From a virus: DNA of 64,000 nt. The stretch lies in IMG/VR virus record IMGVR_UViG_3300029121_000001. One strand, written 5' to 3'. Made by a program: the position numbers and the translations under genes. This document shows positions 4,022-60,185 of this stretch, piece after piece (the stretch's first letter is position 1; the number at the start of each line of letters is the position of its first letter). The notes under the pieces were generated by a model that was not told the DNA's origin, made no database searches, and saw only the letters and a program-made list of their open reading frames with translations.

Positions 4022-4606
4022 TTAAACCTCCCTGCATTTATCTGCATATGCTTTAATGGTGATATTGTAAATATTTGGAGAGAAAGAAATTCTACGTATA
4101 GAGATAGAAGTGAAGGCATCACTGGTAATAATTTTAATCAGAGAAAGGTCTTTTTCCATCTCAGAGATGCTTTCCTCGATAACGTGATTAATGATAAACA
4201 TAACGCCTTCATATGCGTTATTCTTTAAATCAAAGTACGTAAACCCATCGATTTTAGTATTATAATTATCATTATCAAAGAGAGCAACTTCGAACTGAGG
4301 CTCAATGGTACAAGCCTGAAGAGATTTAAAAATCTTTTCAAGTTTGTTCTCATAATGATGAGTATCGAAACTCATAATGCGGCTATACTTTTCAGAGCTA
4401 CAATGGTAATCATTATCATCATTACCGATTGCAGCCATGTTGATCAGAGAGAACGTTAGTCCACTAAAGCTAGGCACATTGCCAATACGATAGTTGACAT
4501 CAAAACCTTCAGACAAAGCGCCAACAATAGAGATCACATGCTGAAGATTATAGTACCGAGTAGTCTTATCCGTATATATGAGTGGCATCGCAAATTTCAG
4601 TTCCAT
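4022..4606 (-). CDS. hypothetical protein, paralog family 1
   Basis: MELKFAMPLIYTDKTTRYYNL...; paralog of 2931-3560. Confidence 0.7.
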   Translation of the reverse strand: MELKFAMPLIYTDKTTRYYNLQHVISIVGALSEGFDVNYRIGNVPSFSGLTFSLINMAAIGNDDNDYHCSSEKYSRIMSFDTHHYENKLEKIFKSLQACTIEPQFEVALFDNDNYNTKIDGFTYFDLKNNAYEGVMFIINHVIEESISEMEKDLSLIKIITSDAFTSISIRRISFSPNIYNITIKAYADKCREV

Positions 4607-4633
4607 GTTTTATTTCCTTTCTGGTTATAGAGA

Positions 4634-5326
4634 TTATTGTTTCCTATTAATCTCTGAAGAAATTGTGAAAACAGCTGAATTATTTAGATTATCAATTTCA
4701 AGTTTAAATGAAATCTTCTTACTACTATCAGTGATTTCATAAACCGTTGTAATCGGATATTCAGCTGCTACATGCTGTTGGATACCATTCTTCATTCCTG
4801 CTCCAATATTATAAAGGATACTATAAAGCAGGAAATTAATGCATCTACTAATAGTAGATTTTGCATATTCATATGACTTTCCAGCAATGTACGGATTAAA
4901 TCCTTTTGCTTTATTCAGGAAATATCCATATTTCTTAATAATTGCATCAATCGGATTTTCTTCACCTCCTCTTGTCTTATTGATAAGATCATAAAGATCA
5001 AGATAGTCTTTAAAGAGTCTCCTGATCTTAATAATATTACCAGTATCAGTAATATCAGGAATCACAATTTTCAGCTTAGCGATTCTTTTTGTATCGTAAA
5101 GATCTCTGTATACTGTATACAGGATACTGTTATATTTAGAGACTCTATTATCACGATATGCATAGTTACTGCATATCATGATAACACCATTGCATAGATC
5201 TGCTAAGCCAGGATCGATAAAATTAATGATAGCATATCCTTCATCATTTTCTTTAGGAACGAAGTTTATGATATCATATTCCTTTGTAGTAGTTTCCTTA
5301 AATGGAGCTACGAATAATTCTGCCAT
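4634..5326 (-). CDS. hypothetical protein, distant member of paralog family 1
   Basis: N-terminus MAELFVAPFKETTTKEYDIINF resembles the family-1 N-termini. Confidence 0.6.
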   Translation of the reverse strand: MAELFVAPFKETTTKEYDIINFVPKENDEGYAIINFIDPGLADLCNGVIMICSNYAYRDNRVSKYNSILYTVYRDLYDTKRIAKLKIVIPDITDTGNIIKIRRLFKDYLDLYDLINKTRGGEENPIDAIIKKYGYFLNKAKGFNPYIAGKSYEYAKSTISRCINFLLYSILYNIGAGMKNGIQQHVAAEYPITTVYEITDSSKKISFKLEIDNLNNSAVFTISSEINRKQ

Positions 5327-6949: not shown

Positions 6950-7612
6950 TTAAATTGCTTCGATAAAAATTTCGATTACATTTTTATCACTTTTATTGAG
7001 GGTTCGAACTTTTCTTTCTGCCCTGATAACAATATTGCTCGGACTATTTGGATCATTCATGAAGATGCATTCAAGTGTTTTATATCTCATAAACATATTC
7101 CGAATCTCAGAAATAATCGAATAAATCATGTACCGAGCAACTTCATAATGCGGATCAATAGGATTAAAGATATCCCAGGAGCATGCTTTGGTGCCAAAGT
7201 ACCTTCTGTAAATATCACATTTATCTTTACTCTTAGAAAAGACAAATGCATTCTTCCATTCATCCGGAGTCATATCAACACCGAATTTAAGAAGATCATT
7301 AATCTTATTGATATCTTCGGTATTATCAATATTAACCCAATAGAACATAACCGAATAACCATTCATATTGCCACGGAAACCTTGGTAATTGCTAGTAAAT
7401 GGATTATCGCTTTCAACTTCAGAAGGCGAATGATCGGTGTTATTGGTAACTGCCAGACTCAACAAAGCTGATACAATTGCAGGCATAGTAGGATCATCGT
7501 TACCGAAATTGAGAGTCTGACCGATCTCATTAGTATTGATAAATCCATTAACAATAGAAGTGCTATTGTAAGAGATGGACTTAATGTCGGAATTATTAAA
7601 AACATACTTCAT
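6950..7612 (-). CDS. hypothetical protein, possible paralog family 1 relative
   Basis: ATG at 7612 preceded by GGAAGAGGAGA; NFGNDDPTMPAIVSALLSLAV resembles NVKYGENAPHINGMLFSLINA of 2931-3560. Confidence 0.55.
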   Translation of the reverse strand: MKYVFNNSDIKSISYNSTSIVNGFINTNEIGQTLNFGNDDPTMPAIVSALLSLAVTNNTDHSPSEVESDNPFTSNYQGFRGNMNGYSVMFYWVNIDNTEDINKINDLLKFGVDMTPDEWKNAFVFSKSKDKCDIYRRYFGTKACSWDIFNPIDPHYEVARYMIYSIISEIRNMFMRYKTLECIFMNDPNSPSNIVIRAERKVRTLNKSDKNVIEIFIEAI

Positions 7613-7616
7613 AATT

Positions 7617-7976
7617 TTATTTCTCCTCTTCCATTTCATCTAACAGCAGAATGTTATCATTCCACAACTTGTCATAGTCGATTTTAATGTCTGGATAAAA
7701 ATCTTCCATAAACTCTGCCAGGATTTTAGCATTTTTCCGAAGATCTCTATGCTTCACTACAAGTTTGTTCAAATTCTCATAGATCTGCCTCTTGCAACAT
7801 CCCAAGAAACAAGTGCCATTTTCATGAAACTTGTTTTTGCACATGAAGAAGATAATCCCAGTCTTTACCTCACTAAATTTGAAATAATCTTCATCATTAA
7901 CACCTGCAACATCATCGAAGAAGTAATCGAGTGCTCGCTGAAATTCAATATACCGTTGCTTTTCTGTCTTTACCAT
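7617..7976 (-). CDS. hypothetical protein
   Basis: ORF 7617-8063; ATG at 7976 (MVKTEKQRY) has AAAGAAAGGAAAA RBS and lies downstream of promoter box/hairpin 8006-8046. Confidence 0.6.
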   Translation of the reverse strand: MVKTEKQRYIEFQRALDYFFDDVAGVNDEDYFKFSEVKTGIIFFMCKNKFHENGTCFLGCCKRQIYENLNKLVVKHRDLRKNAKILAEFMEDFYPDIKIDYDKLWNDNILLLDEMEEEK

Positions 7977-16707: not shown

Positions 16708-17649
16708 TTACTCCTTTCCAATAATAATTCTTACTTTATGAATATTATTATTACTATTAGAAGATTCTATTACTCTGCCTACAGATAGATTAGAATATTC
16801 TTTACTAGACTTTCCAACTCCAGGAATATCAGAAGGGATAATATAATCTCCAATATCTACATTACCAATACACTTTACATATACACGTCCACATAATCCT
16901 ATGGGAATATATTTCTTAATATTCTTAGAAATATAATCATCTCCAGTATCTACTGTTTCTCCACCAATAATCATAGCATATTCATCAGAATGAACTCCTG
17001 CAATAATACTACTTTTATTAGTAGCTTTAATATATTTCTCTTCTTTATTATTTTCATCTAATGCAATAATATCTCCAGGTTCTGTATATTCTCCTCTAGG
17101 GAAGAACTCTGCATAGTCATTATATACAGCACCATAACATTTACTAAATTTTGCTACACCATTTTTATCTACATAATAACTAGCACTACCAAAATTAATA
17201 GTACCAGTCATTGTTCCTCCTGCTATAGGAAGATAAGCGTCATTTAGCGAAGTCAGAGTCTGATTCATAGAATAGATCAGAGCAGAGGTAGGAATGTAGT
17301 CATTGGAGTTAACTTGAGTACTAGAAGTAGGTAGTTGAGCAACCTTATGAGAGTGATTAGAAGGTGCTTTGCCATCAATTTGGCCCTTAACAGTAGAGCC
17401 AGTAGAGAAGCCAGTACCAAGAACATTGTACAGATAGCGGACATTTTTTGCCATCTGAGTAATCTTAGTAAAGATACTAGCATGGTTATCGGAAGTAGTA
17501 ATTTGACCTACATTAGTCCAAGATGTTGCACTTGCTTGGGCAACATCGCTAGAAGAGAATCCACCAGTACCTGTAGTAAGAGTACCAGTAGGGGAAGGAG
17601 ATATGTCGTAAGACGTAGATCCTACCTTAATATGATCAACATTAGCCAT
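16708..17649 (-). CDS. tail fibre protein with C-terminal autoproteolytic/chaperone-like domain
   Basis: LPIAGGTMTGTINF tail-fibre motif; C-terminal GLCGRVYVKCIGNVDIGDYIIPSDIPGVG resembles the phi29 gp12-type (Peptidase_G2) intramolecular chaperone domain. Confidence 0.7.
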   Translation of the reverse strand: MANVDHIKVGSTSYDISPSPTGTLTTGTGGFSSSDVAQASATSWTNVGQITTSDNHASIFTKITQMAKNVRYLYNVLGTGFSTGSTVKGQIDGKAPSNHSHKVAQLPTSSTQVNSNDYIPTSALIYSMNQTLTSLNDAYLPIAGGTMTGTINFGSASYYVDKNGVAKFSKCYGAVYNDYAEFFPRGEYTEPGDIIALDENNKEEKYIKATNKSSIIAGVHSDEYAMIIGGETVDTGDDYISKNIKKYIPIGLCGRVYVKCIGNVDIGDYIIPSDIPGVGKSSKEYSNLSVGRVIESSNSNNNIHKVRIIIGKE

Positions 17650-17751
17650 ATTTTTTAGTTTCCTTTCTCTAAATTTACCTGTTTTGGCTTGATTTTGAGT
17701 AACTATTTTAAAAAAGAAATTGCGGGGTGATCATAAAGACCACACCGAATA

Positions 17752-17904
17752 AGATCTTAAACGTAGCCTTCAATAAAATAAATTCAACGAAACCTTCAAA
17801 TTATCTGACGCTTCTTATAGTCTTCAATTACAATGGATAAATCTGTATATCGAAATCTTCAAAACATTTTAACGAATCGTTCATTCATTTTAACGCAATC
17901 TTCA
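17752..17904. repeat. six direct copies of a 12-mer (minus-strand TTGAAGRTTTCG), iteron-like array
   Basis: Plus-strand copies cgtagccttcaa 17752, cgaaaccttcaa 17778, tagtcttcaa 17818, cgaaatcttcaa 17851, cgaatcgttca 17873, cgcaatcttca 17894; followed by a nearly pure AT stretch 17905-17975. Confidence 0.6.
17804..17872 (+). other. short plus-strand cassette remnant starting at an inverted copy of the junction core
   Basis: tctgacgcttct at 17804-17815 opens SDASYSLQLQWINLYIEIFKTF*; no start codon. Confidence 0.4.
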
Positions 17905-17979
17905 TTATCATATTGTTACATATTTTTAAATTAAAAATGATATTATATGAAACATATACTAAATAAGATATAAAAATAT

Positions 17980-18009
17980 GAGGGTAGAAATCGTCAAATT
18001 TCTACCCTC
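17980..18009. terminator. strong stem-loop (gagggtagaaa/tttctaccctc)
   Basis: 11-bp perfect stem seen directly; followed by tandem ccattttag ccattttag. Confidence 0.5.
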
Positions 18010-18099
18010 TAAATACCCCATTTTAGGCCATTTTAGAGGCGTTTGGCAGATTTCTCAGACTACTTCGTAATAGCGTCATATTATTTAAAAAATAATAAA

Positions 18100-18137
18100 A
18101 ATAAAAAGAAAAGCCAATAGAGATTTCTCTCTATTGG
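18100..18137 (-). terminator. rho-independent terminator after cassette A
   Basis: Hairpin ccaatagagatttctctctattgg plus T-run on the minus strand. Confidence 0.7.
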
Positions 18138-18145
18138 TTTATAAT

Positions 18146-18373
18146 TTAAATATAGACAATGTTTGCATGATAATCTGTATTACCAGATACTGCACTATCA
18201 GAGTAGTGATTTATGTATTTGCAATATAATTTTCCATTTTCTTTACAAACCTAGTAGATTGTACTGCCGTATGTACTTAAATTCAATAATTCATATCCAA
18301 TCATTATATCATTTAATTTATATCCTTTAGTATCAATATAAATATTATTAAGTCTTTTTATAGAAGCGTCAGA
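18146..18373 (-). other. start-less ORF cassette A (type I, SDASIKRL...), with in-frame TAG
   Basis: Begins at junction core 18361-18375. Reads SDASIKRLNNIYIDTKGYKLNDIMIGYELLNLSTYGSTIY*VCKENGKLYCKYINHYSDSAVSGNTDYHANIVYI*; TAG at 18251-18253. Homologous to cassette D along its whole length. Confidence 0.6.
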
Positions 18374-18379
18374 TTGCTA

Positions 18380-18676
18380 TTATATAGAAATATAATAAAT
18401 ATTTATGGTTCCAACCATAGGTGATCTAATAAATGTAAAATTATTACTATTATTAATTTTACATGAATAAAATAAATAAATAATAAATCTTTCATTTGTA
18501 GATGTATATTGTGAATGTGCTACATTTACTAATATCATCGTAATATTGTCAGTCGTATCTGGAATTGCATTAATTAGATACTCACTAGAATAATCTGTTG
18601 AAGTCATTTTCACTTCAATCATATATGTATTATTTATACTCTGAGTTCGCTGCTTAATTTTAGTAGAAGCGTCAGA
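18380..18676 (-). other. start-less ORF cassette B (type II, SDASTKIK...)
   Basis: Begins at junction core 18664-18678 immediately after an in-frame TAA and a terminator. 98 codons ending INIYYISI*; no RBS, and the first in-frame ATG is 19 codons in. Confidence 0.6.
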
Positions 18677-18683
18677 TTAATAG

Positions 18684-18722
18684 AAAAAAAAATAAAGAGG
18701 AAGTAGTTTTATCTACTTCCTC
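18684..18722 (-). terminator. rho-independent terminator of 18731-19576, immediately upstream of cassette B
   Basis: Hairpin gaggaagtag...ctacttcctc followed on the minus strand by TTTATTTTTTTTT. Confidence 0.75.
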
Positions 18723-18730
18723 TTTTACAT

Positions 18731-19576
18731 TTATAGAGCAGATAATGGATTTATTACCATCATGATAGTAATCTTTCTATTTTCATCATCAATAGTAAAA
18801 CTTATATCATCGATATTATCTCCAAATGTTTTAATGCAAACATTTCTCACAAACAATTTAGTTTCGATATATACTTGTTTATTATTTATATTCATTGGTA
18901 TAAGTTCAAGATTACTAAAATATTTTATTTTACTAATATCAGTAATGCTATATCCAGCACATCCACATAGTTTAGCAAAATCTTCATATTGCATTTCGAT
19001 AGTATACCTTGTTTTTATGGCAGTATCTACTTTTGCACCAATCTTTTCATCATTTAAGAATTTGATAATTGGATCATTATCTGCTGGTTTATTATCCGAT
19101 TTTGCATTATCATCAATATGATCTGTATCAATAGTAATATTTTTCTTAGGTCTACCTCTTTTTGCTTTAGGTTGTTTGGGTACAATGATTTTATCATAAT
19201 CATCTATTTCAATATTCTTTAATTTGGGACGAACTTTTTCATTTTCATTATCTCCATAATCATCGTAGTTAAATGATTGATATGCTATAATTGTAACTTC
19301 TCCATTTTTATCATCAATAGAAAAAGAACAATTATAAAGATCATTTGCATCGAAAATACGTTTAGCTATTCTTTTTGTAATATAGATTAGATCCATACCA
19401 TTATGGCCATGGCTATCAATATCACTTGCAGATACTCCTAGCATATCTTGGATATAATAATTTGAAAATTTAAATCCAGATTGAAAGATAATGTTTGCAA
19501 ATGTATCCCAATCCAATATTGCAGTTCTTTTTATTTCGAACTTACATTCTTTTTTATATTTTATATTGTTATACAT
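18731..19576 (-). CDS. internally duplicated protein with central AT-hook (KAKRGRPKKN)
   Basis: ATG at 19576 with AGGAGAT RBS just after terminator 19590-19625. Two homologous halves (SFSIDDKNGEVTIIA / SFTIDDENRKITIMM) joined by a Lys/Arg-rich RGRP linker. Confidence 0.6.
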   Translation of the reverse strand: MYNNIKYKKECKFEIKRTAILDWDTFANIIFQSGFKFSNYYIQDMLGVSASDIDSHGHNGMDLIYITKRIAKRIFDANDLYNCSFSIDDKNGEVTIIAYQSFNYDDYGDNENEKVRPKLKNIEIDDYDKIIVPKQPKAKRGRPKKNITIDTDHIDDNAKSDNKPADNDPIIKFLNDEKIGAKVDTAIKTRYTIEMQYEDFAKLCGCAGYSITDISKIKYFSNLELIPMNINNKQVYIETKLFVRNVCIKTFGDNIDDISFTIDDENRKITIMMVINPLSAL

Positions 19577-23791: not shown

Positions 23792-24748
23792 TTATTCTTT
23801 AGCCTCTTCTTTCTTCTCAGGAATTTCAAATTCATTATGGTGCTTGATAAAGAACTGTTTTGCAGTTTTCTTATCATTAAAAGTTGCCATAAATCCACCA
23901 GGATGGCAGAAGGTCATTCCAGACTCAGAATGAAGTTCCTCGAAATTGGGGCTCTTGATAGAAAGTCCACGATACTTATTAGGGAACAACTTCTTGTTTA
24001 CTCCATCGGTATCTTTTGCTGCAATGACATTGTATTTGCCAATGTCACGATTAGATGGAGAACCATAGAATTCAAGCCCATCAACGTCGCTCATGAATTT
24101 GCCAATAGGAGCGTAATAGTCAAGATATACAACTCCATATTCGATATCTTGAGCGTTCTCCAGAACTGCCTTGGCTCTGTAATCGGATCTAATACGTTCA
24201 AGCTTATAGCTTAACGTATCCTTAGCTTTAGAGATTGCCAAAGCAACTCGAATATTGATATTGGGATCAGGACAATCCCATGTCGGATTCATACAACTGA
24301 TTTCATCACTGATACCATTATATGCACCAGTGTTATCAGTATAATCAATTGTCTTAACCCACTTATCAAATTCCTGATATTCGTAATCGTTCAAGAATCC
24401 ATCATGAAATTCTCGAACGATTAGTCCAAATGCAGCATAAGGACTGCCATCAGGACGACGCTGCTTAAGCTCCTCTCTAAAGTGATGATCAAAACGACCA
24501 CCGCCTACATCGTAGACGAGGTAGCCGTTCTGCTCTGTCATTTCATCAGAAATGACGTTCTTCCTTTCCCATTTGGGGAAAGGAATTCCAAGCCAATCAT
24601 AGACCAGCATAAGATATGCTGATGCGAAAACTTCATCAGCATGGAATACACCGCTATGGAATATAATGTGATCATACTTTTCAAGTTTGCTCTTAAGGAT
24701 AAGAGCTTCATTAGAAAGTGAATAATCGATAAGTGCACTGTTGTTCAT
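23792..24748 (-). CDS. MYG1/UPF0160-family metal-dependent hydrolase (exonuclease-like)
   Basis: FHSGVFHADEVFASAYL and YDVGGGRFDHHF match the MYG1 family His/Asp motifs. Confidence 0.7.
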   Translation of the reverse strand: MNNSALIDYSLSNEALILKSKLEKYDHIIFHSGVFHADEVFASAYLMLVYDWLGIPFPKWERKNVISDEMTEQNGYLVYDVGGGRFDHHFREELKQRRPDGSPYAAFGLIVREFHDGFLNDYEYQEFDKWVKTIDYTDNTGAYNGISDEISCMNPTWDCPDPNINIRVALAISKAKDTLSYKLERIRSDYRAKAVLENAQDIEYGVVYLDYYAPIGKFMSDVDGLEFYGSPSNRDIGKYNVIAAKDTDGVNKKLFPNKYRGLSIKSPNFEELHSESGMTFCHPGGFMATFNDKKTAKQFFIKHHNEFEIPEKKEEAKE

Positions 24749-25495: not shown

Positions 25496-27318
25496 TTACA
25501 TTCGAACAGAATTAGAGAAGTTTGCTCTCTTTGCACCGAATTGGCCAATACCAGCAGACGATGCAGGGAAATTACCAAGATTATCAGAAATGATCTGTTC
25601 ATAATCAATCAATTTTCTCAACCAATCAGGAACAGGAAGATCTTTAGGTAGTGCAATAGTATCAAGCTTTCCTTTGAAAACTTTATTAATTGTTCTACCT
25701 TCTACTAATCCTGTATTATTAAGATCAATCAATTCACAGATCTTTACATACTGCATTGGATAATCTTCTCTAATAGTTTCCAAGGTATATTTATCAACTT
25801 TAACCTTGATTACATCAATGGCATTTCTATCATTCAAATCAAATCCAGGAAGATCACACTTGATATAATTCCATGCCATTGCTGCTTTAACACCTTGAAT
25901 TCTAGTAGGATCATCATAGTTATCCATAGACTTAATAGTTGCAGGCTTGTAATATTTCTTAGATCCGGAAACAAGATCATTATAAATGGTCTTTTCAAGA
26001 ATAGCAATGTCTTTGATCAACTTCAATTGATCAATAGAATCTCCAGTAAGCATATCTTCAAGAAGAATCTTTTTCAATGCTTTCTGGGTATCTTTAGAAG
26101 TAGAAGATTTAGTTAGACAATCAATACCCTTGACATCCAATACGCCACTTCCAAGATAATTGCCTTCCTGCAGAATCTGAAGACTTGCATAATGTTTCTT
26201 TGCATCTGTCAACATGATTCGAGACATATAGAACTCATTCTTCATGTTGATCTTACATTTATCAGCTCCTCTAAAAGATTTAGATTCCTTAGTAAAATCA
26301 ATCATATACTGATTAATTACAGAAGAGAGAATATAACACATGATATTGATCAATGCAAATTTTACATTATCCTGAGGAATAATCTTCGTAGCATCAATCA
26401 TTCTCTTTTGCTCAATAATCTCTTCATTAAAGAAATCATAATCTTTTTTATTTTCCAGAAATTCAATAGCTGCTAATTCATCAGGGTTTGCAATGTCACC
26501 AAAACTATCAGTTTTTAAGAAACTTATTGCAACCTGTTTATCTACAGCATTATACCAATCTGGGGTTTCTGTATCTTTCCAGAAATAATCTTCTTTCTTC
26601 TTTTCAGCTTCTAGATACTTAAATACATCAATCTGTTGATGCATAATAGGACAGTCATAATTCTGAAGATACTGGATATTATAATTATACCAAGCATCCA
26701 AAGAAATGAAAGACGAGTCAGTATCAGATACAATAGATACTGTCTTAATCATTTCTTTATTTCTAATCATTCTATCCATATATTGATGACAGTAGAAGAC
26801 ATATTCCATCAATAGATCACGAAGCTGATCAAGATATCCGATTATTTCTTTCGGAGGTTTAGCAGGTTCAATATAAGGAGTTTTCATTCCAGTAATAATC
26901 TTTATCATCAAATCTCTTGCAATAGGCAAGTCCATAAAACAATAAAGATTATTCTTATAGAACAATCTATTCAATTCAATCTGATTACAATTTTGAATAA
27001 TTCTCCATACAGTTTCCATATCCTGTTCTGTAGGAACATATTTAAAACCACAATTTAGAATGATCTTATTAAAACATTCATCTGGAGAAATAAAACCATT
27101 AAATCCAAGAACTTCATAATCATTATATTTCCAGTCATTTCCCTCCATTCTTACATTGTCAATAAAGATGAGAACATCATTAAGACTTCCAAACTTAACA
27201 TTGTTCCCAAGGAATCCTTCAAAGCAAAGAATTGCAGAACTAATTAGAGATCTACCGATAGATGTTACAGAAGGTGCAATGTTGAGGTCGAACAAAATCG
27301 ATACATACAAACCAACCA
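25496..27318 (-). CDS. family-B DNA polymerase, exon 3 (second half of motif B, motif C, KKxY, thumb)
   Basis: VSDTDSSF (motif C, DTDS), KKHYASL (KKRY-type motif). Exon start set at 27318, directly after the omega-G of intron 2. Confidence 0.8.
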
Positions 27319-27653
27319 CAAAATCTTCACGTAGCTCGTTGGAGTTAATCAATGGATTAATCCTCTCTTCTACGCAGTTCTCTTATGAACTTCTCTAGGT
27401 GTTGCCTAGAAGTTGTGACTATATAATAGTCTATATAAATTATTTTATATAGACCCAGGATTTTCGAATTAAACGGTCTTACGTTTACAAGACAGCCGTC
27501 CCCACTTGGGGCCTACTCCTCTTAAGAGGATAGTCGATAAGCGTCTCTTATGATTTCTCATAAGCTTTCGCAATTGATTAGAGCCGTAGCCCTTTCCCAA
27601 TTTTAACCCTTGTTATCATTCTTGACTCACATCAAGAAGGGGCAGTTTAGTTT
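27319..27653 (-). ncRNA. group I intron 2 (ORF-less, 335 nt)
   Basis: P-like AAAUUGGGAAAGGGCU with UACG-capped hairpin (27588-27603), R-like CUUAUCGACUAUCC (27528-27541), S-like UAUUAUAUAGUCAC (27415-27428). Preceded by U, ends in G; GCCC near the 5' end can pair with exon GGGU. Confidence 0.7.
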
Positions 27654-27665
27654 ACCCGTATATCG
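27654..27665 (-). CDS. family-B DNA polymerase, 12-nt micro-exon (encodes part of SIYG in motif B)
   Basis: CGAUAUACGGGU between the two introns; needed to restore NGSIYGLVG and to keep the frame (442+12+1823 nt). Confidence 0.65.
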
Positions 27666-28041
27666 CAATATTCATGTAAGTCGTTGATATTATCTCTCAC
27701 TTACACAGTTCTCTAATGAACTTCCCTAGATTATCTCTAGGATACTAGACTATATCACTACCATATCATATTTCTATGACTTAGGTACACCAGATTTCGA
27801 GACTCACTTGAGCTCTACAACTAGTCGTTGAACCTATTAGAGAATTATTTCTCTAAGCTGGATGCTGATTGTCTATTTTGGTTTAAAAATACTTAGGCTT
27901 ACTATCACCATATATCATCCTAATTATTATTTCTGCTTTCGCTCTAATATCTACACATATTAGCAATTAGGCTTTAAGACTTCCCAGCAATTTCTTGGTG
28001 TTACCATTTGACCGTTTCCAGCCTAATGGGGCTATATAGTT
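27666..28041 (-). ncRNA. group I intron 1 (ORF-less, 376 nt)
   Basis: P-like AAAUUGCUGGGAAG (27980-27993), R-like GGUUCAACGACUAGUUG (27818-27834), S-like GAUAUAGUCUAG (27745-27756). Preceded by U, ends in G; 5' end and roughly 80-nt 3' tail homologous to intron 2. Confidence 0.7.
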
Positions 28042-28483
28042 AACCATTTACATCTATCTTGTCCAAAGCTTGTAATAGATTATATTTCTCAAATTGTTCT
28101 GATCCTTTAGGATATTTAAACATTTCCTTTTTATGAATTTTTCGAAGGTCTAGGAAGTTTTGAATGACTCTCGCCATAGGATTAGGAACTACATCATGTC
28201 TTCTAAACATAGTTCCATAACTTGTCAGAATTGGTTCTCTTCGTGCAATATAATCAATCAACTCTAGCATTGTTAGTTGAGGATCAGAGTTTGTATAATT
28301 ATTTTTTACAGTCAGAGTAAAATTCTGAAATCGCTTAGCTATCGAATATTCTACACCAGCATAAATGTCTCTAATATCCATTTCTGGATGAATAGAGTGA
28401 ATTATTCTAGACATAGTATCTCGATAATGCATAAGCATCTCGTGATCTTTCGGATTTACTGTTCCATTAATGTCTCTTATCAT
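28042..28483 (-). CDS. family-B DNA polymerase, exon 1 (motif A region to first half of motif B)
   Basis: ATG at 28483 with AAAGGAGAA RBS (track start 28504 is a TTG). DIRDIYAGV (motif A-like), VVPNPMARVIQNFLDLRKIHKKEM, QALDKIDVNG (start of Kx3NSxYG). Confidence 0.75.
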
Positions 28484-28571: not shown

Positions 28572-29054
28572 TTAACAATTGGGACACTCATTGCAACATC
28601 CAGGACAGGTATTATCAAATTCAGTAGGTATAAAAGGATTCTTTGTATAGATTCCAAACATTTCACCGAATTCGATTACCTTGTTCTTTAGACCAGCATA
28701 AGGGATCTGATCTACTTCTACAGGATTGTAAGTAATAATCAGATTAGGTGCACCTTGCTGATCAGGATCGAATTTAAACTGACCAGAGAAAGATCTGCAG
28801 AGTTTATAAGAATTCTCTACAATATTCTTGTTCAGTTCTTCATCGAATTTTTCTTTATAGAAGTCTCTCAGATTGATATAATGAAGATATGGCATAAAAA
28901 TCTGAAACTTTTCAAGTATGGACATTTGATCCCATCCAGATAGAAGCCAATCCCATCTATCAAGAGCATCATTCTTATAAGTATCGTCAGTTACAACGGT
29001 AGTGTTAGAAGATGAGCATGAGCAATCATCTTCGCGTTCGATGTAATTAGCCAT
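28572..29054 (-). CDS. hypothetical protein with C-terminal CPGCCNECPNC cluster
   Basis: ATG at 29054 (ATGGCTAA overlap with upstream stop); Cys-rich at both termini. Confidence 0.55.
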   Translation of the reverse strand: MANYIEREDDCSCSSSNTTVVTDDTYKNDALDRWDWLLSGWDQMSILEKFQIFMPYLHYINLRDFYKEKFDEELNKNIVENSYKLCRSFSGQFKFDPDQQGAPNLIITYNPVEVDQIPYAGLKNKVIEFGEMFGIYTKNPFIPTEFDNTCPGCCNECPNC

Positions 29055-29508
29055 TCTTCTTTTCTTCCATAACAGTCTTGTAGCCCTCACCGTTGGTGTC
29101 AACCCATTTTAGCAGAGCAGGATAGTTCTTCATCATATTCTCAATACGCTCATGAAGTTCCTTCTTAAAAGTAGTCTTCATACGCTCATGGAAATACAGA
29201 ACACGAATGTTCATACGATCATCGGAGATATACTTATTCATACGGCCATTGGCAATATCAATGATGATATCATTGAGACGAGAAACAGAACGAGTCTCGT
29301 CTGCGCTATATCCCTTTTCACCGTTCAGATAAGCAAGCAGATCACGCATAGCGATCTTGTGAACACTTGCATCAGAGATCTTCTTCTCAAGGAAATCACA
29401 AGTTGCTTCAATGATCTCAACACTCTTAGTCTGGAAAGCTAGCTTCTCAGCCTTAATCTTTGCATATTCTTCATTGGACATACGAGGCTTACCGTTGTAA
29501 TTGTTCAT
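29047..29508 (-). CDS. hypothetical protein
   Basis: 153-aa ORF; AGAAAGGAT RBS; first gene after the divergent promoter region. Confidence 0.6.
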   Translation of the reverse strand: MNNYNGKPRMSNEEYAKIKAEKLAFQTKSVEIIEATCDFLEKKISDASVHKIAMRDLLAYLNGEKGYSADETRSVSRLNDIIIDIANGRMNKYISDDRMNIRVLYFHERMKTTFKKELHERIENMMKNYPALLKWVDTNGEGYKTVMEEKKNG

Positions 29509-57623: not shown

Positions 57624-58367
57624 ATGCCAAAAACTATAACTCCTGAAATTCGTCAAAAATGTGAAGAGATTATTTATAAAACATTTTCTGCAATTGATCC
57701 TACTGGTGCTAATACAGAATATTATCAAAAACTATTTGCAGATATGTCTGATGCTGAATTCACTAAACTAATTTCTGGTAGACTTCCTTTTAGATATCAT
57801 GTAGCTCCTTTTGATAATGAGCCTAAGATGCCTGATATATTTAAGGCATTTAAAGTTCTTGGTAAACCTCTAATGGAAACTGTTAAGCTTCCTTATCTAG
57901 CAAAAAATGCTGATGGTACACCTATCGAAAGTCAAGAGTGTATGGTAGGATATTTAAATATCAAACGTCTAAAGCAGATGCTTACCAAAAAGAATAATAC
58001 TGCTATTGAAATTGCTAAGCGTGATATGAAACTAACTGGCAGACTTCAGAGTACAGATAAGGGTGGTCTAGAATCAAATAAGGAATTCGAGGGAGCAATG
58101 GCTCTAAACCTAGAGAATACTACTGTAGAATATGCTCGTGTTAAAGCTGCTGCTATGAAATCTAAAGCGGAAGCTTATAATACAATCAATGTTAAGGGTG
58201 AAGTTAGTTTCAATGATATTGATATGGATAAAAATGATAGTATTCCTAAGAATGCTATGAATGTGTATCTAATCGGTGCTAATATTCATAGTAATCTTAT
58301 TGATGAAAATTATTATACTCCATATACATTGGAACGTCATGCTAAACGTCTAGAAAGAAATAATTAA
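57624..58367 (+). CDS. possible multisubunit RNA polymerase beta-like C-terminal fragment
   Basis: Weak resemblance only: MVGYLNIKRLKQMLTKK versus beta G.MYMLKLHHLVDDK, and DKGGLESNKEFEGAMAL versus GGQRFGEMEVWAL. AAAGGAGAA RBS. Confidence 0.35.
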   Translation: MPKTITPEIRQKCEEIIYKTFSAIDPTGANTEYYQKLFADMSDAEFTKLISGRLPFRYHVAPFDNEPKMPDIFKAFKVLGKPLMETVKLPYLAKNADGTPIESQECMVGYLNIKRLKQMLTKKNNTAIEIAKRDMKLTGRLQSTDKGGLESNKEFEGAMALNLENTTVEYARVKAAAMKSKAEAYNTINVKGEVSFNDIDMDKNDSIPKNAMNVYLIGANIHSNLIDENYYTPYTLERHAKRLERNN

Positions 58368-58370
58368 AAA

Positions 58371-58415
58371 AAAAATAAAACCGGTAGAGGATTAAATCCT
58401 CTACCGGTCTTTTTA
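58371..58415. terminator. bidirectional terminator closing cassette locus 2 and gene 57624-58367
   Basis: ccggtagaggattaaatcctctaccgg flanked by an A-run and a T-run. Confidence 0.75.
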
Positions 58416-58513
58416 GGAGAAAATATTATGCCAACCAATATCCATCGTAGCAATGATATCGGCTAAATAAGATATCCAACCAGCACCGAAATCAGATATC
58501 TTTAATATTATGT

Positions 58514-58774
58514 TTAAATATAAAGTATTTTAGAAGTGACTTTTCCTGAATATTCAGCTTGTAGACGTATCAATATAAAATAGCCTTTATTATCTTCATT
58601 ACGCTCCATATAAATGCCTGATATTGTAAATGGATGACTAGTATTATCACTAACATCTTTTATATATATTATTTGTAATGGAATTTTTGGATCTGGTACA
58701 TAATATATTGCTAACGTGCCACGCTGTACAGTAGTAATTGCGTCATCTATTTTAATTTTAGTAGAAGCGTCATT
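58514..58774 (-). other. start-less ORF cassette C (type II, NDASTKIK...)
   Basis: Begins at variant junction AATGACGCTTCTA (58762-58774), 7 nt after the stop of cassette D. 86 codons ending SKILYI*; no RBS or start codon. Confidence 0.6.
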
Positions 58775-58780
58775 ATGCTT

Positions 58781-59014
58781 TTAAATATATATTATATTTG
58801 CATAGGTGCTATATTTATCAAAATAAAATGTATCATTACCACTACCATGTGCATATGCAGCATATAGTTTATTATTATATTTATATATACCAGAATATTC
58901 TTCTCTAATTGATGGTGAATTTAATAAATCGTATCCTATTATTATACCTGCTAGTACATATCCTTTGGTTGCATCGATATATATTCCATCAAGCCTTTTT
59001 ATAGAAGCGTCAGA
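58781..59014 (-). other. start-less ORF cassette D (type I, SDASIKRL...)
   Basis: Begins at junction core 59002-59016 directly after an in-frame TAA and terminator 59019-59060. 77 codons with no Met at all, ending ANIIYI*. Differs from cassette A partly by synonymous changes. Confidence 0.6.
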
Positions 59015-59018
59015 TTAT

Positions 59019-59060
59019 AAAAAAAAATAAAAAGGAGTGAAGAGTAAAATCTTCACTCCT
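59019..59060 (-). terminator. rho-independent terminator immediately upstream of cassette D
   Basis: aggagtgaagagtaaaatcttcactcct followed on the minus strand by TTTTTATTTTTTTTTT. Confidence 0.75.
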
Positions 59061-59066
59061 TTTATC

Positions 59067-59237
59067 TTATTTGAAGAATATATTAAATGTGTCCATGTCT
59101 GGACCGTTGACCATTACACGTACATTTCGTGCACACACACAACATGGTCCGATGCAGTATTGTTCTCTGCAAGAGCAGTGGCAGCTCTTTTCATCTGCAG
59201 CAATTGCATAATTGCTACCATATGTATAAACTACTTT
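59067..59237 (-). other. Cys-rich 56-codon ORF in frame with, and directly after, the TGA of 59238-59402
   Basis: KVVYTYGSNYAIAADEKSCHCSCREQYCIGPCCVCARNVRVMVNGPDMDTFNIFFK*. No in-frame ATG before codon 42, no RBS; the terminator follows this ORF, not the TGA. Confidence 0.45.
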
Positions 59238-59402
59238 TCATCCTTTAAAAGGAGGAATATAGTTCTCAACATCGATCGGGACAAATGCTCCGGATAGGAA
59301 ATCCAGTTCATTGATCCCGAGGATCTTGCACCTCCTAATATATTCTTCTTTACCGATTTTAAAATCGATGGGTTTACGACTCATGCGTAATACGTCAGCC
59401 AT
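59238..59402 (-). CDS. small hypothetical protein ending in TGA
   Basis: ATG at 59402 (MADVLRMSRK) with TAAGGAGGA RBS, downstream of promoter box/hairpin 59443-59491. Confidence 0.6.
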   Translation of the reverse strand: MADVLRMSRKPIDFKIGKEEYIRRCKILGINELDFLSGAFVPIDVENYIPPFKG

Positions 59403-59442
59403 AATAGTCCTCCTTAAGACTTTCAATATAATGAATATTCTT

Positions 59443-59491
59443 TCTAAGAAGGAATACATTTATCCTTCTTATCACTTTTATAATATATCAG
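59443..59491 (-). promoter_or_regulatory. TATTATAA box plus immediate stem-loop
   Basis: Minus strand CTGATATATTATAAAAGTGATAAGAAGGATAAATGTATTCCTTCTTAGA upstream of 59238-59402. Confidence 0.6.
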
Positions 59492-59540
59492 TGAAATATT
59501 AAAAAATGAAATAGGATATAAAATCCTATTTCATTTATAT

Positions 59541-60185
59541 TTAATTTCCTTTAGTACTCTTAACACCAAAGCTTATAGCATCATCTTCCCTATCAGGTCC
59601 TACCATGAACTTAGCTTTGATATTCCTATCTTCAAGAATTTCATTAACTTTCTTTACATAGTTATGAGCATCCTTTTCATAATTCTCACTACCGTGATCC
59701 TTAAAATCAGGATATCCACTATAAGTATCACCATTCATAAGTTCGATAAATGCTTTCGGAGAACTACTGTAGTATTTACCAAAAGAAGATTCTCGTTCAC
59801 CCTCATCATTAATATGATCTTTATCATTAAGATCAACATAATCACAACATCTTTTCAACTTTGGAAAATCCATTAAAGTAGATGTAGCAATTGTCATGAT
59901 TCTACGAATTTCTTCTTTTGTCAAATGCTCAGGAGTTTGTTCTTTTTTCTCTTCACTTTTGTTCTTATCAGATTCAGACTTTGAATCTGAAGAAGATGAT
60001 TTCTTATCGTTTGATTTAGAAGAAGTTTTTTCTTTTTTATCGTCTTCTTCATCATCTTCCTCGTCGTCATCCTCATCTTCGTCATCATCATTATCTTCAT
60101 CTTTATCATCGTCATCATCCAAATATTGTGCATATTTAGAAACATATTTTTCATTCAAGATAAACTTTTTGTTGAATATAGACAT
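59541..60185 (-). CDS. protein with poly-acidic and Ser/Lys-rich N-terminal half
   Basis: DDDDDKDEDNDDDEDEDDDEEDDEEDDKKEKTSSKSNDKKSSSSDSKSESDK; TAGGAGAA RBS. Confidence 0.6.
   Translation of the reverse strand: MSIFNKKFILNEKYVSKYAQYLDDDDDKDEDNDDDEDEDDDEEDDEEDDKKEKTSSKSNDKKSSSSDSKSESDKNKSEEKKEQTPEHLTKEEIRRIMTIATSTLMDFPKLKRCCDYVDLNDKDHINDEGERESSFGKYYSSSPKAFIELMNGDTYSGYPDFKDHGSENYEKDAHNYVKKVNEILEDRNIKAKFMVGPDREDDAISFGVKSTKGN

Follow-up and report, generated by a model that had tools for sequence, protein, structure and literature searches.

The stretch of DNA considered here, 64,000 nucleotides (nt) of the virus record IMGVR_UViG_3300029121_000001 (the window), belongs to a jumbo phage of the human gut and encodes on its minus strand a family-B DNA polymerase (PolB). 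Very probably this is one gene, split within the 16 nt encoding N-G-I-Y-G-L of motif B by two independent group I introns that would both be spliced out of the transcript. The upstream intron, intron 1 (27664..28042, minus strand), is 379 nt long, and the downstream one, intron 2 (27319..27653, minus strand), 335 nt; both lack an open reading frame (ORF), and between them stands a micro-exon of 10 nt, AUAUACGGGU (27654..27663, minus strand). This reading is carried by the sequence anatomy of the locus, by its boundaries and their conservation, by covariation, and by presence/absence polymorphism among relatives. A sequence-only reading of the window had already placed inside motif B a pair of group I introns, both ORF-less and separated by a tiny exon, and two full-length matches to the group I intron model bear this out.

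The interrupted polymerase gene and its spliced product

Exon 1 of PolB (28043..28483, minus strand; 441 nt, 147 codons, with its ATG at 28483..28481) corresponds by homology to the N-terminal region of PolB in relatives without interruption and ends ...AAU GGU. The frame reads ...LLQALDKIDVNG (...QALDKIDVNG), then meets the stop TAA at 28042..28040 and picks up about 720 nt further on at ...GLYVSILFDLNIAPSVTSIGR (...VVGLYVSILFDLNIAPSVTSIGR), in an ORF of 618 amino acids (aa) at 27352..25496 on the minus strand. The ORF and frame check thus finds both the stop and the resumption where the sequence-only reading had put them. Exon 3 (25496..27318, minus strand; 1823 nt including the stop) begins UG GUU GGU, the (L)VG of YGxxG. 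The gap holds stops in all frames, and its sole ORF of at least 40 aa, a 43-aa TTG ORF (27469..27600, minus strand) lying across P4-P7.2 of the intron 2 ribozyme, is regarded as spurious. Neither window intron has an ORF of at least 60 aa, and the endonuclease ORF of a mobile intron is absent from both. The gap had also been described as GC-richer than its surroundings, which is true but modest, with 34.8% and 38.8% in the introns against 31.8% in the exons. An intein or a programmed frameshift in PolB was considered as well and rejected, as the gap combines all-frame stops with a ribozyme core.

The downstream ORF, that of exon 3, matches Pfam PF20286, divDNApol (“divergent family B DNA polymerase”; E 1.6e-26), and no Pfam match was obtained for the upstream 154-aa ORF alone. 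The mature coding sequence of 441+10+1823 = 2274 nt encodes 757 aa, and this spliced protein matches Pfam DNA_pol_B (PF00136) over residues 98-179 (E 1.8e-12). The latter match straddles both junctions and appears with the spliced protein only, with neither ORF alone. The spliced motif, KIDVNGIYGLVG, is colinear with Kx3NSxYGxxG, with Gly in place of Ser, and the homologue profile LdKidvNgiYGviG aligns without gaps to KIvaNSvYGlmG of poxvirus PolB, the classical motif B. By homology, the gene is that of the catalytic subunit of an AR9/PBS1-type divergent family-B DNA polymerase.

The tandem arrangement is not an assembly error, because a region of 1001 nt is 100% identical in a human-gut metagenome scaffold (L038; this and the other L numbers designate fetched loci) and the exact exon-3 ORF recurs on five contigs, of which three exceed 200 kb. 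The 147-aa exon-1 gene is called alike on the identical contig L038.

Splice boundaries and the micro-exon

Two splice maps keep the reading frame. In map A, that of the sequence-only reading, exon 1 ends at 28042, intron 1 extends over 28041..27666, and a 12-nt micro-exon, CGAUAUACGGGU (27665..27654), gives the product ...NGSIYG... and exon lengths of 442+12+1823. In map B, exon 1 ends at 28043 and the micro-exon has 10 nt, which encode the Ile and Tyr of motif B and provide the initial bases of its Gly(-Leu), as assigned from homologue alignment and from single-intron and intron-less alleles. The boundaries of map B are favoured over those of map A by five independent lines. All 14 homologues uninterrupted at motif B read KIDxN(G/A)-IYGxxG, with no Ser. 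The intron-less L001 has 16 nt between the flanking similarity blocks, where map B predicts 1+10+5 = 16 and map A 19. In L002, which is without intron 1, AATGGT is joined directly to ATATACGGGT, that is, AAT GGT ATA TAC GGG T, followed at once by intron 2; L004 and L005, which have only intron 1, read ...TTGCG followed by ATATATGGCCTTGTTGG. Removal of 28042..27664 is the sole excision reproducing the L002, L004 and L005 alleles, and the boundaries of intron 1 are fixed further by the intron-1-less alleles L001 and L006. In the intron-2-less alleles L004, L005 and L014, 18 nt are found where the window has 10+8 nt of exon.

The pairings at the splice site differ between the maps too. Map B gives a normal P1, in which exon GGU and the following intron UA pair with UAGCC and a U.G wobble stands at the splice site, as well as a P10 of 5 base pairs (bp) with exon AUAUA, whereas map A gives a U-A pair at the splice site and no P10. 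The P1 of intron 1 had looked unclean in the sequence-only reading (GGUU/AGCC); at the corrected boundary it becomes a GGU/GCC helix with the wobble and the 5-bp P10. It is hardly credible, then, that map A is right. It obeys the rule that the exon ends in U and the intron in G, as G27666, its terminal G, is present in the window and in L004; yet those are the only two loci with G there, the position being A in five relatives (L005, L012, L014, L015 and L017) and deleted in three (L003, L020 and L021). Moreover, it adds a Ser that is missing from the uninterrupted homologues and from motif B of solved PolB structures, and intron-1-less alleles read GGT directly before ATATAC, without TCG. The earlier limits of intron 1 therefore missed the 5' end by 1 nt and the 3' end by 2 nt, and the exon supposed to encode SIYG is really the 10 nt of 27663..27654; the frame of that map is kept, but its lengths become 441+10+1823. 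Its intron 2, 27653..27319, with a GGGU/GCCC P1 and U.G wobble, was right.

Group I features of the two introns

A scan of 27200..28150 (951 nt) with Rfam gives two separate Intron_gpI (RF00028) matches, each spanning the full model (1-253), one for each of the units distinguished earlier. With E-values for this 951-nt search, intron 1 matches over 28051..27724 (31.5 bits, E 5.3e-6) and intron 2 over 27663..27395 (31.0 bits, E 7.3e-6), both scores being under the curated gathering score of 50. The scan of the whole window at gathering thresholds lists nothing because both scores lie below that value, and an E-value scan of the whole 64-kb window misses both introns because the filters are stricter at that length; an E-value scan of L001-L003 taken whole gave no match either. 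The two sets of P, R and S core strings quoted in the sequence-only reading are all present, and they sit at J3/4-P4, J6/7-P7 and J8/7-P7' of the Intron_gpI alignments.

The elements P1-P10 can be drawn for both introns, and in a scripted check every proposed pair is standard. Both have the conserved core, comprising the P3-P8 and P4-P6 domains, the P3/P7 pseudoknot and the P/Q/R/S elements, together with peripheral hairpins capped by GNRA or UNCG loops and a long P9, P9.1, P9.2 tail. The P1 hairpin of intron 1 (28030..28045, minus strand) is formed by exon GGU (28045..28043) and intron UA with the guide UAGCC (28034..28030), placing the wobble U28043.G28032 at the splice site, and by the same pair check the guide UAUAU (28038..28034) can pair with exon AUAUA (27663..27659) as P10. 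The guide AUAUAGC recurs in the divergent introns at the intron 1 site of L024 and L025. P7 of intron 1, the guanosine-binding helix (27748..27826, minus strand), pairs GACUA (27826..27822) with UAGUC (27752..27748) and forms a pseudoknot with P3 (28000..27996 / 27792..27788). The P1 hairpin of intron 2 (27640..27657, minus strand) consists of exon GGGU (27657..27654) and intron A with UGCCC (27644..27640), with the wobble U27654.G27644; a candidate P10 pairs the loop AACUA (27652..27648) with exon 3 UGGUU (27318..27314). Its P7 (27417..27535, minus strand) pairs GACUA (27535..27531) with UAGUC (27421..27417). The last nucleotide is G in each intron, G27664 and G27319 (omega G), and this G is invariant across the extracted intron copies, in which neighbouring bases vary (23 sequences, of which one is cut by a contig end and has no 3' terminus).

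Extra P7.1/P7.2 hairpins between P7 and P3' are the signature of subgroup IA, the phage type represented by T4 td, SPO1 and Twort. Such hairpins stand between the P7 5' strand and the P3 3' strand in both introns, as one composite hairpin in intron 1 (27820..27797) and as three of the P7.1/P7.2 type in intron 2 (27529..27473), and the P9 region is extended. Both introns are, by these structural features, subgroup-IA-like. The window was also searched for other introns of group I: the conserved P9.1 string is found only in the two PolB introns, core-motif patterns give isolated matches only, and Rfam E-value scans of the ORF-poor gaps 17500..18900 and 58200..59700 yield no intron match. Within these gaps, two stretches of about 1.1 kb (17650..18730 and 58367..59541) have no ORF of at least 90 aa; Rfam matches there are weak and implausible.

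Covariation and the shared 3' module

Covariation was examined for intron 1 in 11 introns at its site, made up of nine close copies together with those of L033 and L034. Structures were derived with RNAalifold and by hand; RNAalifold wrongly joined the 5' guide to the 3' strand of P7, a pairing that was replaced by the canonical P7. In the controls the 3' partners were slid by 1-3 columns. The manual P1-P10 structure leaves 95.2% of cells paired over the 11 homologues, compared with 32-38% in the slid controls, and contains 11 compensatory pairs, in which both sides have changed, compared with 0-3. Among them are two changes of UA to CG in P5, and AU<->GC and UA to CG in P9.2, seen between copies with 97-99% identity elsewhere. 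No variation occurs in P4 and P7 over the 11 introns, P7 fitting the Rfam consensus AGACUA / AUAGUC. It is shown by this comparison of homologues that the helices are maintained by compensatory changes, as for an RNA under selection as a ribozyme.

The sequence-only reading had called the two introns paralogous. The shared 3' tail behind that claim is real, as the modules from P7' through P9.2 are identical at 72 of 93 nt and P7' is identical throughout, but the rest is unlike, BLAST between the 5' two-thirds of the introns finding nothing significant, and the term overstates the relationship. The P9/P9.1 module (GAAGUUCAUNAGAGAACUG; 27424..27368 and 27756..27705) is, over 50-57 nt, 86-90% identical to sequences of unrelated phages, namely Listeria phage LPJP1, Vibrio phage JA-1, and Enterococcus, Brochothrix, Staphylococcus and Pseudoalteromonas phages. 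These matches hint that the module is shared widely among introns, and that the phage records in question hold introns not yet annotated. To judge from these comparisons, introns 1 and 2 did not arise by recent duplication; they come from one broad lineage of phage introns or have a module in common. The match in LPJP1 lies just downstream of an rpoB fragment.

A proposed route of splicing and its alternatives

From the sequence we infer self-splicing and the order in which it would proceed. Each intron is proposed to fold alone and to bind exogenous GTP in P7. Cleavage would occur after the U of the P1 wobble (U28043 in intron 1, U27654 in intron 2), and exon ligation after the terminal G (G27664 and G27319). 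The micro-exon AUAUACGGGU would be used twice, AUAUA as the P10 partner of intron 1 and GGGU as the P1 5' strand of intron 2; as it would act for both introns, the two ribozymes would therefore fold back to back. Double splicing would lead to a 2274-nt mRNA (757 aa) reading ...LDKIDVNGIYGLVGLYVS..., in which the predicted junctions join ...GTAAATGGT to ATATACGGGT and this to TGGTTGGTTTG..., the double-spliced junction sequence being AAGATAGATGTAAATGGTATATACGGGTTGGTTGGTTTGTATG. Under map A the corresponding sequence would be ...AATGGTTCGATATACGGG..., and with the micro-exon skipped ...AATGGTTGGTTGGTTTG.... In unspliced RNA, ribosomes would be stopped by the in-frame UAA at both intron starts, the first one opening intron 1 (28042..28040) and the second lying across the 5' splice site of intron 2 (27654..27652).

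Several points weigh against two introns spliced in this way. Both Intron_gpI scores stay below gathering, a 10-nt exon leaves little space between two folded ribozymes, and in intron 2 the candidate P10 stands 3 nt out of register with the P1 guide. The tested structure of intron 1 had been drawn on the sequence of the window itself, an advantage over the slid controls; as most copies of this intron are 97-99% identical, there are few independent covariation events, and L033 and L034 contribute the greater part of them. Variants of intron 2 are too few for a covariation test. The splicing itself is deduced from the sequence, a point that speaks, like the low Rfam scores, for a truly split polymerase, with the 147-aa and 618-aa ORFs translated apart and the intervening RNA a dead intron remnant or a non-splicing spacer. 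A split gp43 is found in some T4-related phages, and gene callers give two ORFs for this locus, as they do for many relatives. Nevertheless, such a polymerase is very improbable. It would lose the Ile-Tyr-Gly of motif B, encoded only by the 10-nt exon; the 618-aa ORF begins at a TTG within helix P9.2a of intron 2; in intron 1 the helices are preserved through compensatory changes, the catalytic core is intact in both introns, and the presence/absence alleles excise to the nucleotide.

The second alternative concerns the independence of the introns. It assumes a composite ribozyme, or the use of distal splice sites, which would join exon 1 to exon 3 and so lower or regulate polymerase output. 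The likeness of the 3' modules, with their identical P7', agrees with it, and exon skipping is described, in the parts of the literature consulted, for Twort orf142, where similar IA2 introns flank a 23-nt exon, for engineered tandem introns (PMC10136302), and for the terminase gene of SIOphi (PMC11878797). Against it, skipping of 10 nt shifts the frame and the protein would stop after 164 residues, which is loss only. The P1/P10 guides also differ (UAUAUAGCC in one intron, AACUA..UGCCC in the other), and in the engineered system, as far as the consulted part of that report goes, differing guides favoured exon inclusion (PMC10136302), which by analogy may hold here. Such joining of exon 1 to exon 3 is considered unlikely, and independent removal of the two introns is preferred.

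Intron configurations among relatives

The relatives are contigs of ~269 kb from the gut. Among cultured phages, AR9 and PBS1 come nearest, with about 31% identity of the PolB protein, and there too the polymerase catalytic subunit is encoded by a stand-alone gene. Megablast of 16 kb around PolB against GenBank phages gave no match, and no cultured close relative was found there. Among the 38 fetched loci, seven configurations of motif B are present. No intron is found in L001, L006, L007, L009, L011, L023 and others, and intron 1 alone in L004 (whose protein is 98-99% identical to the window's), L005, L012, L013, L015 and L017. Intron 2 alone, with a 272-aa ORF starting in the P1 loop, occurs in L002, L016 and L019. 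The window and L038 have introns 1 and 2, and L018 has the same pair with a 219-aa ORF in intron 1.

The two remaining configurations include a further intron, intron 0 (357-374 nt), which is absent from the window. It is combined with intron 1 in L014 (3728..4084) and with introns 1 and 2 in L003 (2933..3289), L020 (1499..1872) and L021 (3907..4280), where exons of 23 nt and 10 nt are left and three introns stand within 33 nt of coding sequence. Intron 0 is group I-like; it follows GCC U of a Leu codon and is separated from intron 1, downstream, by 23 nt. GCCU pairs with GGGC in its P1, which includes a U.G wobble, and its last nucleotide is G. In more distant polymerases, introns are located at the intron 0 site (L030-L032) and at the intron 1 site (L024, L025, L033, L034), L027 has one a single base from the intron 2 site, and in L010 an intron occupies a fourth position. 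To judge from this distribution, the motif B site is a recurrent insertion hot-spot.

Other interruptions were noticed in the course of the survey. In 13 relatives uninterrupted at motif B, the ORFs all end right after a conserved ...CKI..KNEF, upstream of the KKxYA motif, which the window gene reads through; this suggests a second recurrent insertion site at CKI..KNEF in those 13 phages. A gap of 1.2 kb is present at query residue 352 in L010/L029 (4294..5500 in L010). In AR9 (KU878088.1; L036), the virion RNA polymerase beta' gene g145 (7272..7909) is annotated as three joined pieces. Split or intron-bearing essential genes thus occur in the nearest cultured relatives also.

Homing endonucleases, mobility and origin

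The ORF-less state of the window introns, which the sequence-only reading regarded as unusual, is real but needs the context of relatives carrying versions of both introns with an HNH endonuclease (intron 1 in L018, intron 2 in L002). The intron ORFs of L002 and L018 match the PHROG phrog_59 HNH endonuclease (E 5e-19 and 1e-20, respectively), and that of L018 (219 aa, 4144..4803) also matches Pfam HNH_3 (E 2.6e-7). The HNH ORF of intron 2 (2913..3731 in L002; also in L016 and L019) overlaps with its last ~28 nt the P1 3' strand and P2. In the fetched loci, the HNH ORF is present in intron 2 only where intron 1 is absent, and intron 2 is ORF-less wherever intron 1 is present. The sample is small, and lineage alone could explain this.

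Between lineages that share no more than 76-84% identity of exon DNA, introns 1 and 2 reach 97-98%, and exon identity climbs to 93-98% in the 60-90 nt adjoining the introns. The marks of a mobile intron, namely presence/absence polymorphism at a fixed site and co-conversion of the flanking exon, are both found here. The difference between intron and exon identity therefore points to recent lateral transfer with short co-conversion tracts. Most simply, the ORF-less introns of the window would be derivatives of HNH-bearing forms, or passengers mobilised by them; mobilisation in trans by HNH enzymes would account for the second case.

One further proposal is that the 33 nt of motif B are a battleground of competing homing endonucleases, in which stacked ORF-less introns, up to three, would destroy the targets of neighbouring HNH enzymes and so confer immunity in co-infection, while the shared 10-nt exon would couple ordered, GTP-dependent double splicing to polymerase output. 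As a whole, this is quite unlikely.

Comparison with known systems

According to the parts of the literature consulted, group I introns in phage DNA polymerase genes, genes with multiple introns, small exons between introns, and mobility driven by HNH enzymes are already documented (PMC11878797, PMC10136302, PMC11620839). The window introns are canonical group I introns, and the locus is an extreme case of a known phage-intron habit rather than a new type of element, with introns packed unusually closely at a well-resolved insertion hot-spot. Its closest parallel in arrangement is Twort orf142, in which two similar IA2 introns flank a 23-nt exon and exon skipping is documented (Landthaler and Shub 1999, as described in PMC10136302). 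As in the window, similar subgroup-IA-type introns (introns 2 and 3 of orf142) stand in one phage gene around a very short exon, with a risk of exon skipping, and in principle need no host factors. Unlike in Twort, the exon has 10 nt rather than 23, the gene is a family-B DNA polymerase interrupted in a catalytic motif, only the 3' third of the introns is alike, relatives add a third intron 23 nt upstream, and splicing or skipping is predicted for the window, not documented. The shortest exons quoted between tandem group I introns in the consulted part of one report are 23 nt (Twort) and 34 nt (Coxiella) (PMC10136302); much smaller exons are known in organelle genes (PMC5436844). The literature searched contained no account of the arrangement of this lineage, nor of a 10-nt exon between tandem phage or bacterial group I introns, and the predicted 10 nt would be the shortest such exon found reported.

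The polymerase introns of SPO1, Bastille and Bastillevirinae are likewise self-splicing-type introns in conserved parts of DNA polymerase genes; as far as the source was consulted, they often carry HNH or other homing endonucleases, some of the genes have two or three introns, and a case of a small exon between two introns is described (PMC11878797). The polymerases of all these phages belong to family A, whereas the window has the divergent family-B type (PF20286) known from AR9-like jumbo phages, its introns are ORF-less, and three or four insertion points lie within ~33 nt. In crAss-like phages, which are uncultured phages of the human gut, essential genes including the DNA polymerase are reportedly fragmented by many group I introns and endonuclease genes. 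The same is described for the Jug gut jumbo phages, and no tandem micro-exon arrangement appears in the part of that paper's text that was searched (PMC12880540). The phage of the window differs from both in lineage, with relatives of ~269-kb genomes and a PolB nearest to AR9/PBS1. In PhiPA3, an intron-encoded HNH endonuclease is reported, in the part of the source consulted, to serve competition between co-infecting jumbo phages (PMC11620839). PhiPA3 resembles the lineage of the window: both are jumbo phages in which an essential gene harbours a group I intron, an HNH homing endonuclease occurs, and strains differ in their intron content. In contrast to PhiPA3, the window introns have no endonuclease, and any competitive role would by analogy rest on HNH-bearing relatives of the L002 and L018 types.

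Neighbouring genes

Directly upstream of exon 1 lies a Cys-rich 176-aa ORF (28572..29102, minus strand) ending in CPGCCNECPNC; it is conserved in L002 (1759..2313) and has a weak match to DUF7516 (E 0.007). Downstream of PolB, at 23792..24748 on the minus strand, a homologue of MYG1-type exonuclease is encoded (PF03690, E 5.8e-16). Genes for thymidylate synthase and DHFR are present downstream of PolB in the related loci L002 and L038. The phage probably makes deoxythymidine monophosphate, unlike the uracil-DNA phages AR9 and PBS1.

Significance

For annotation, the catalytic polymerase of an abundant group of gut jumbo phages is at present called as two unrelated ORFs, gene finders being blind to a 10-nt exon, and the corrected map restores the enzyme to its true length of 757 aa. 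In RNA biology, a 10-nt exon predicted to serve one ribozyme in P10 and the next in P1 offers a natural test case for the limits of intron packing and for exon skipping. To phage ecologists, the seven configurations that circulate side by side, some with HNH genes and some without, offer a natural system in which intron homing and endonuclease-mediated competition in the human gut can be studied. If the battleground proposal is true, the stacked introns would make the phage immune to the HNH enzymes of its rivals in co-infection.

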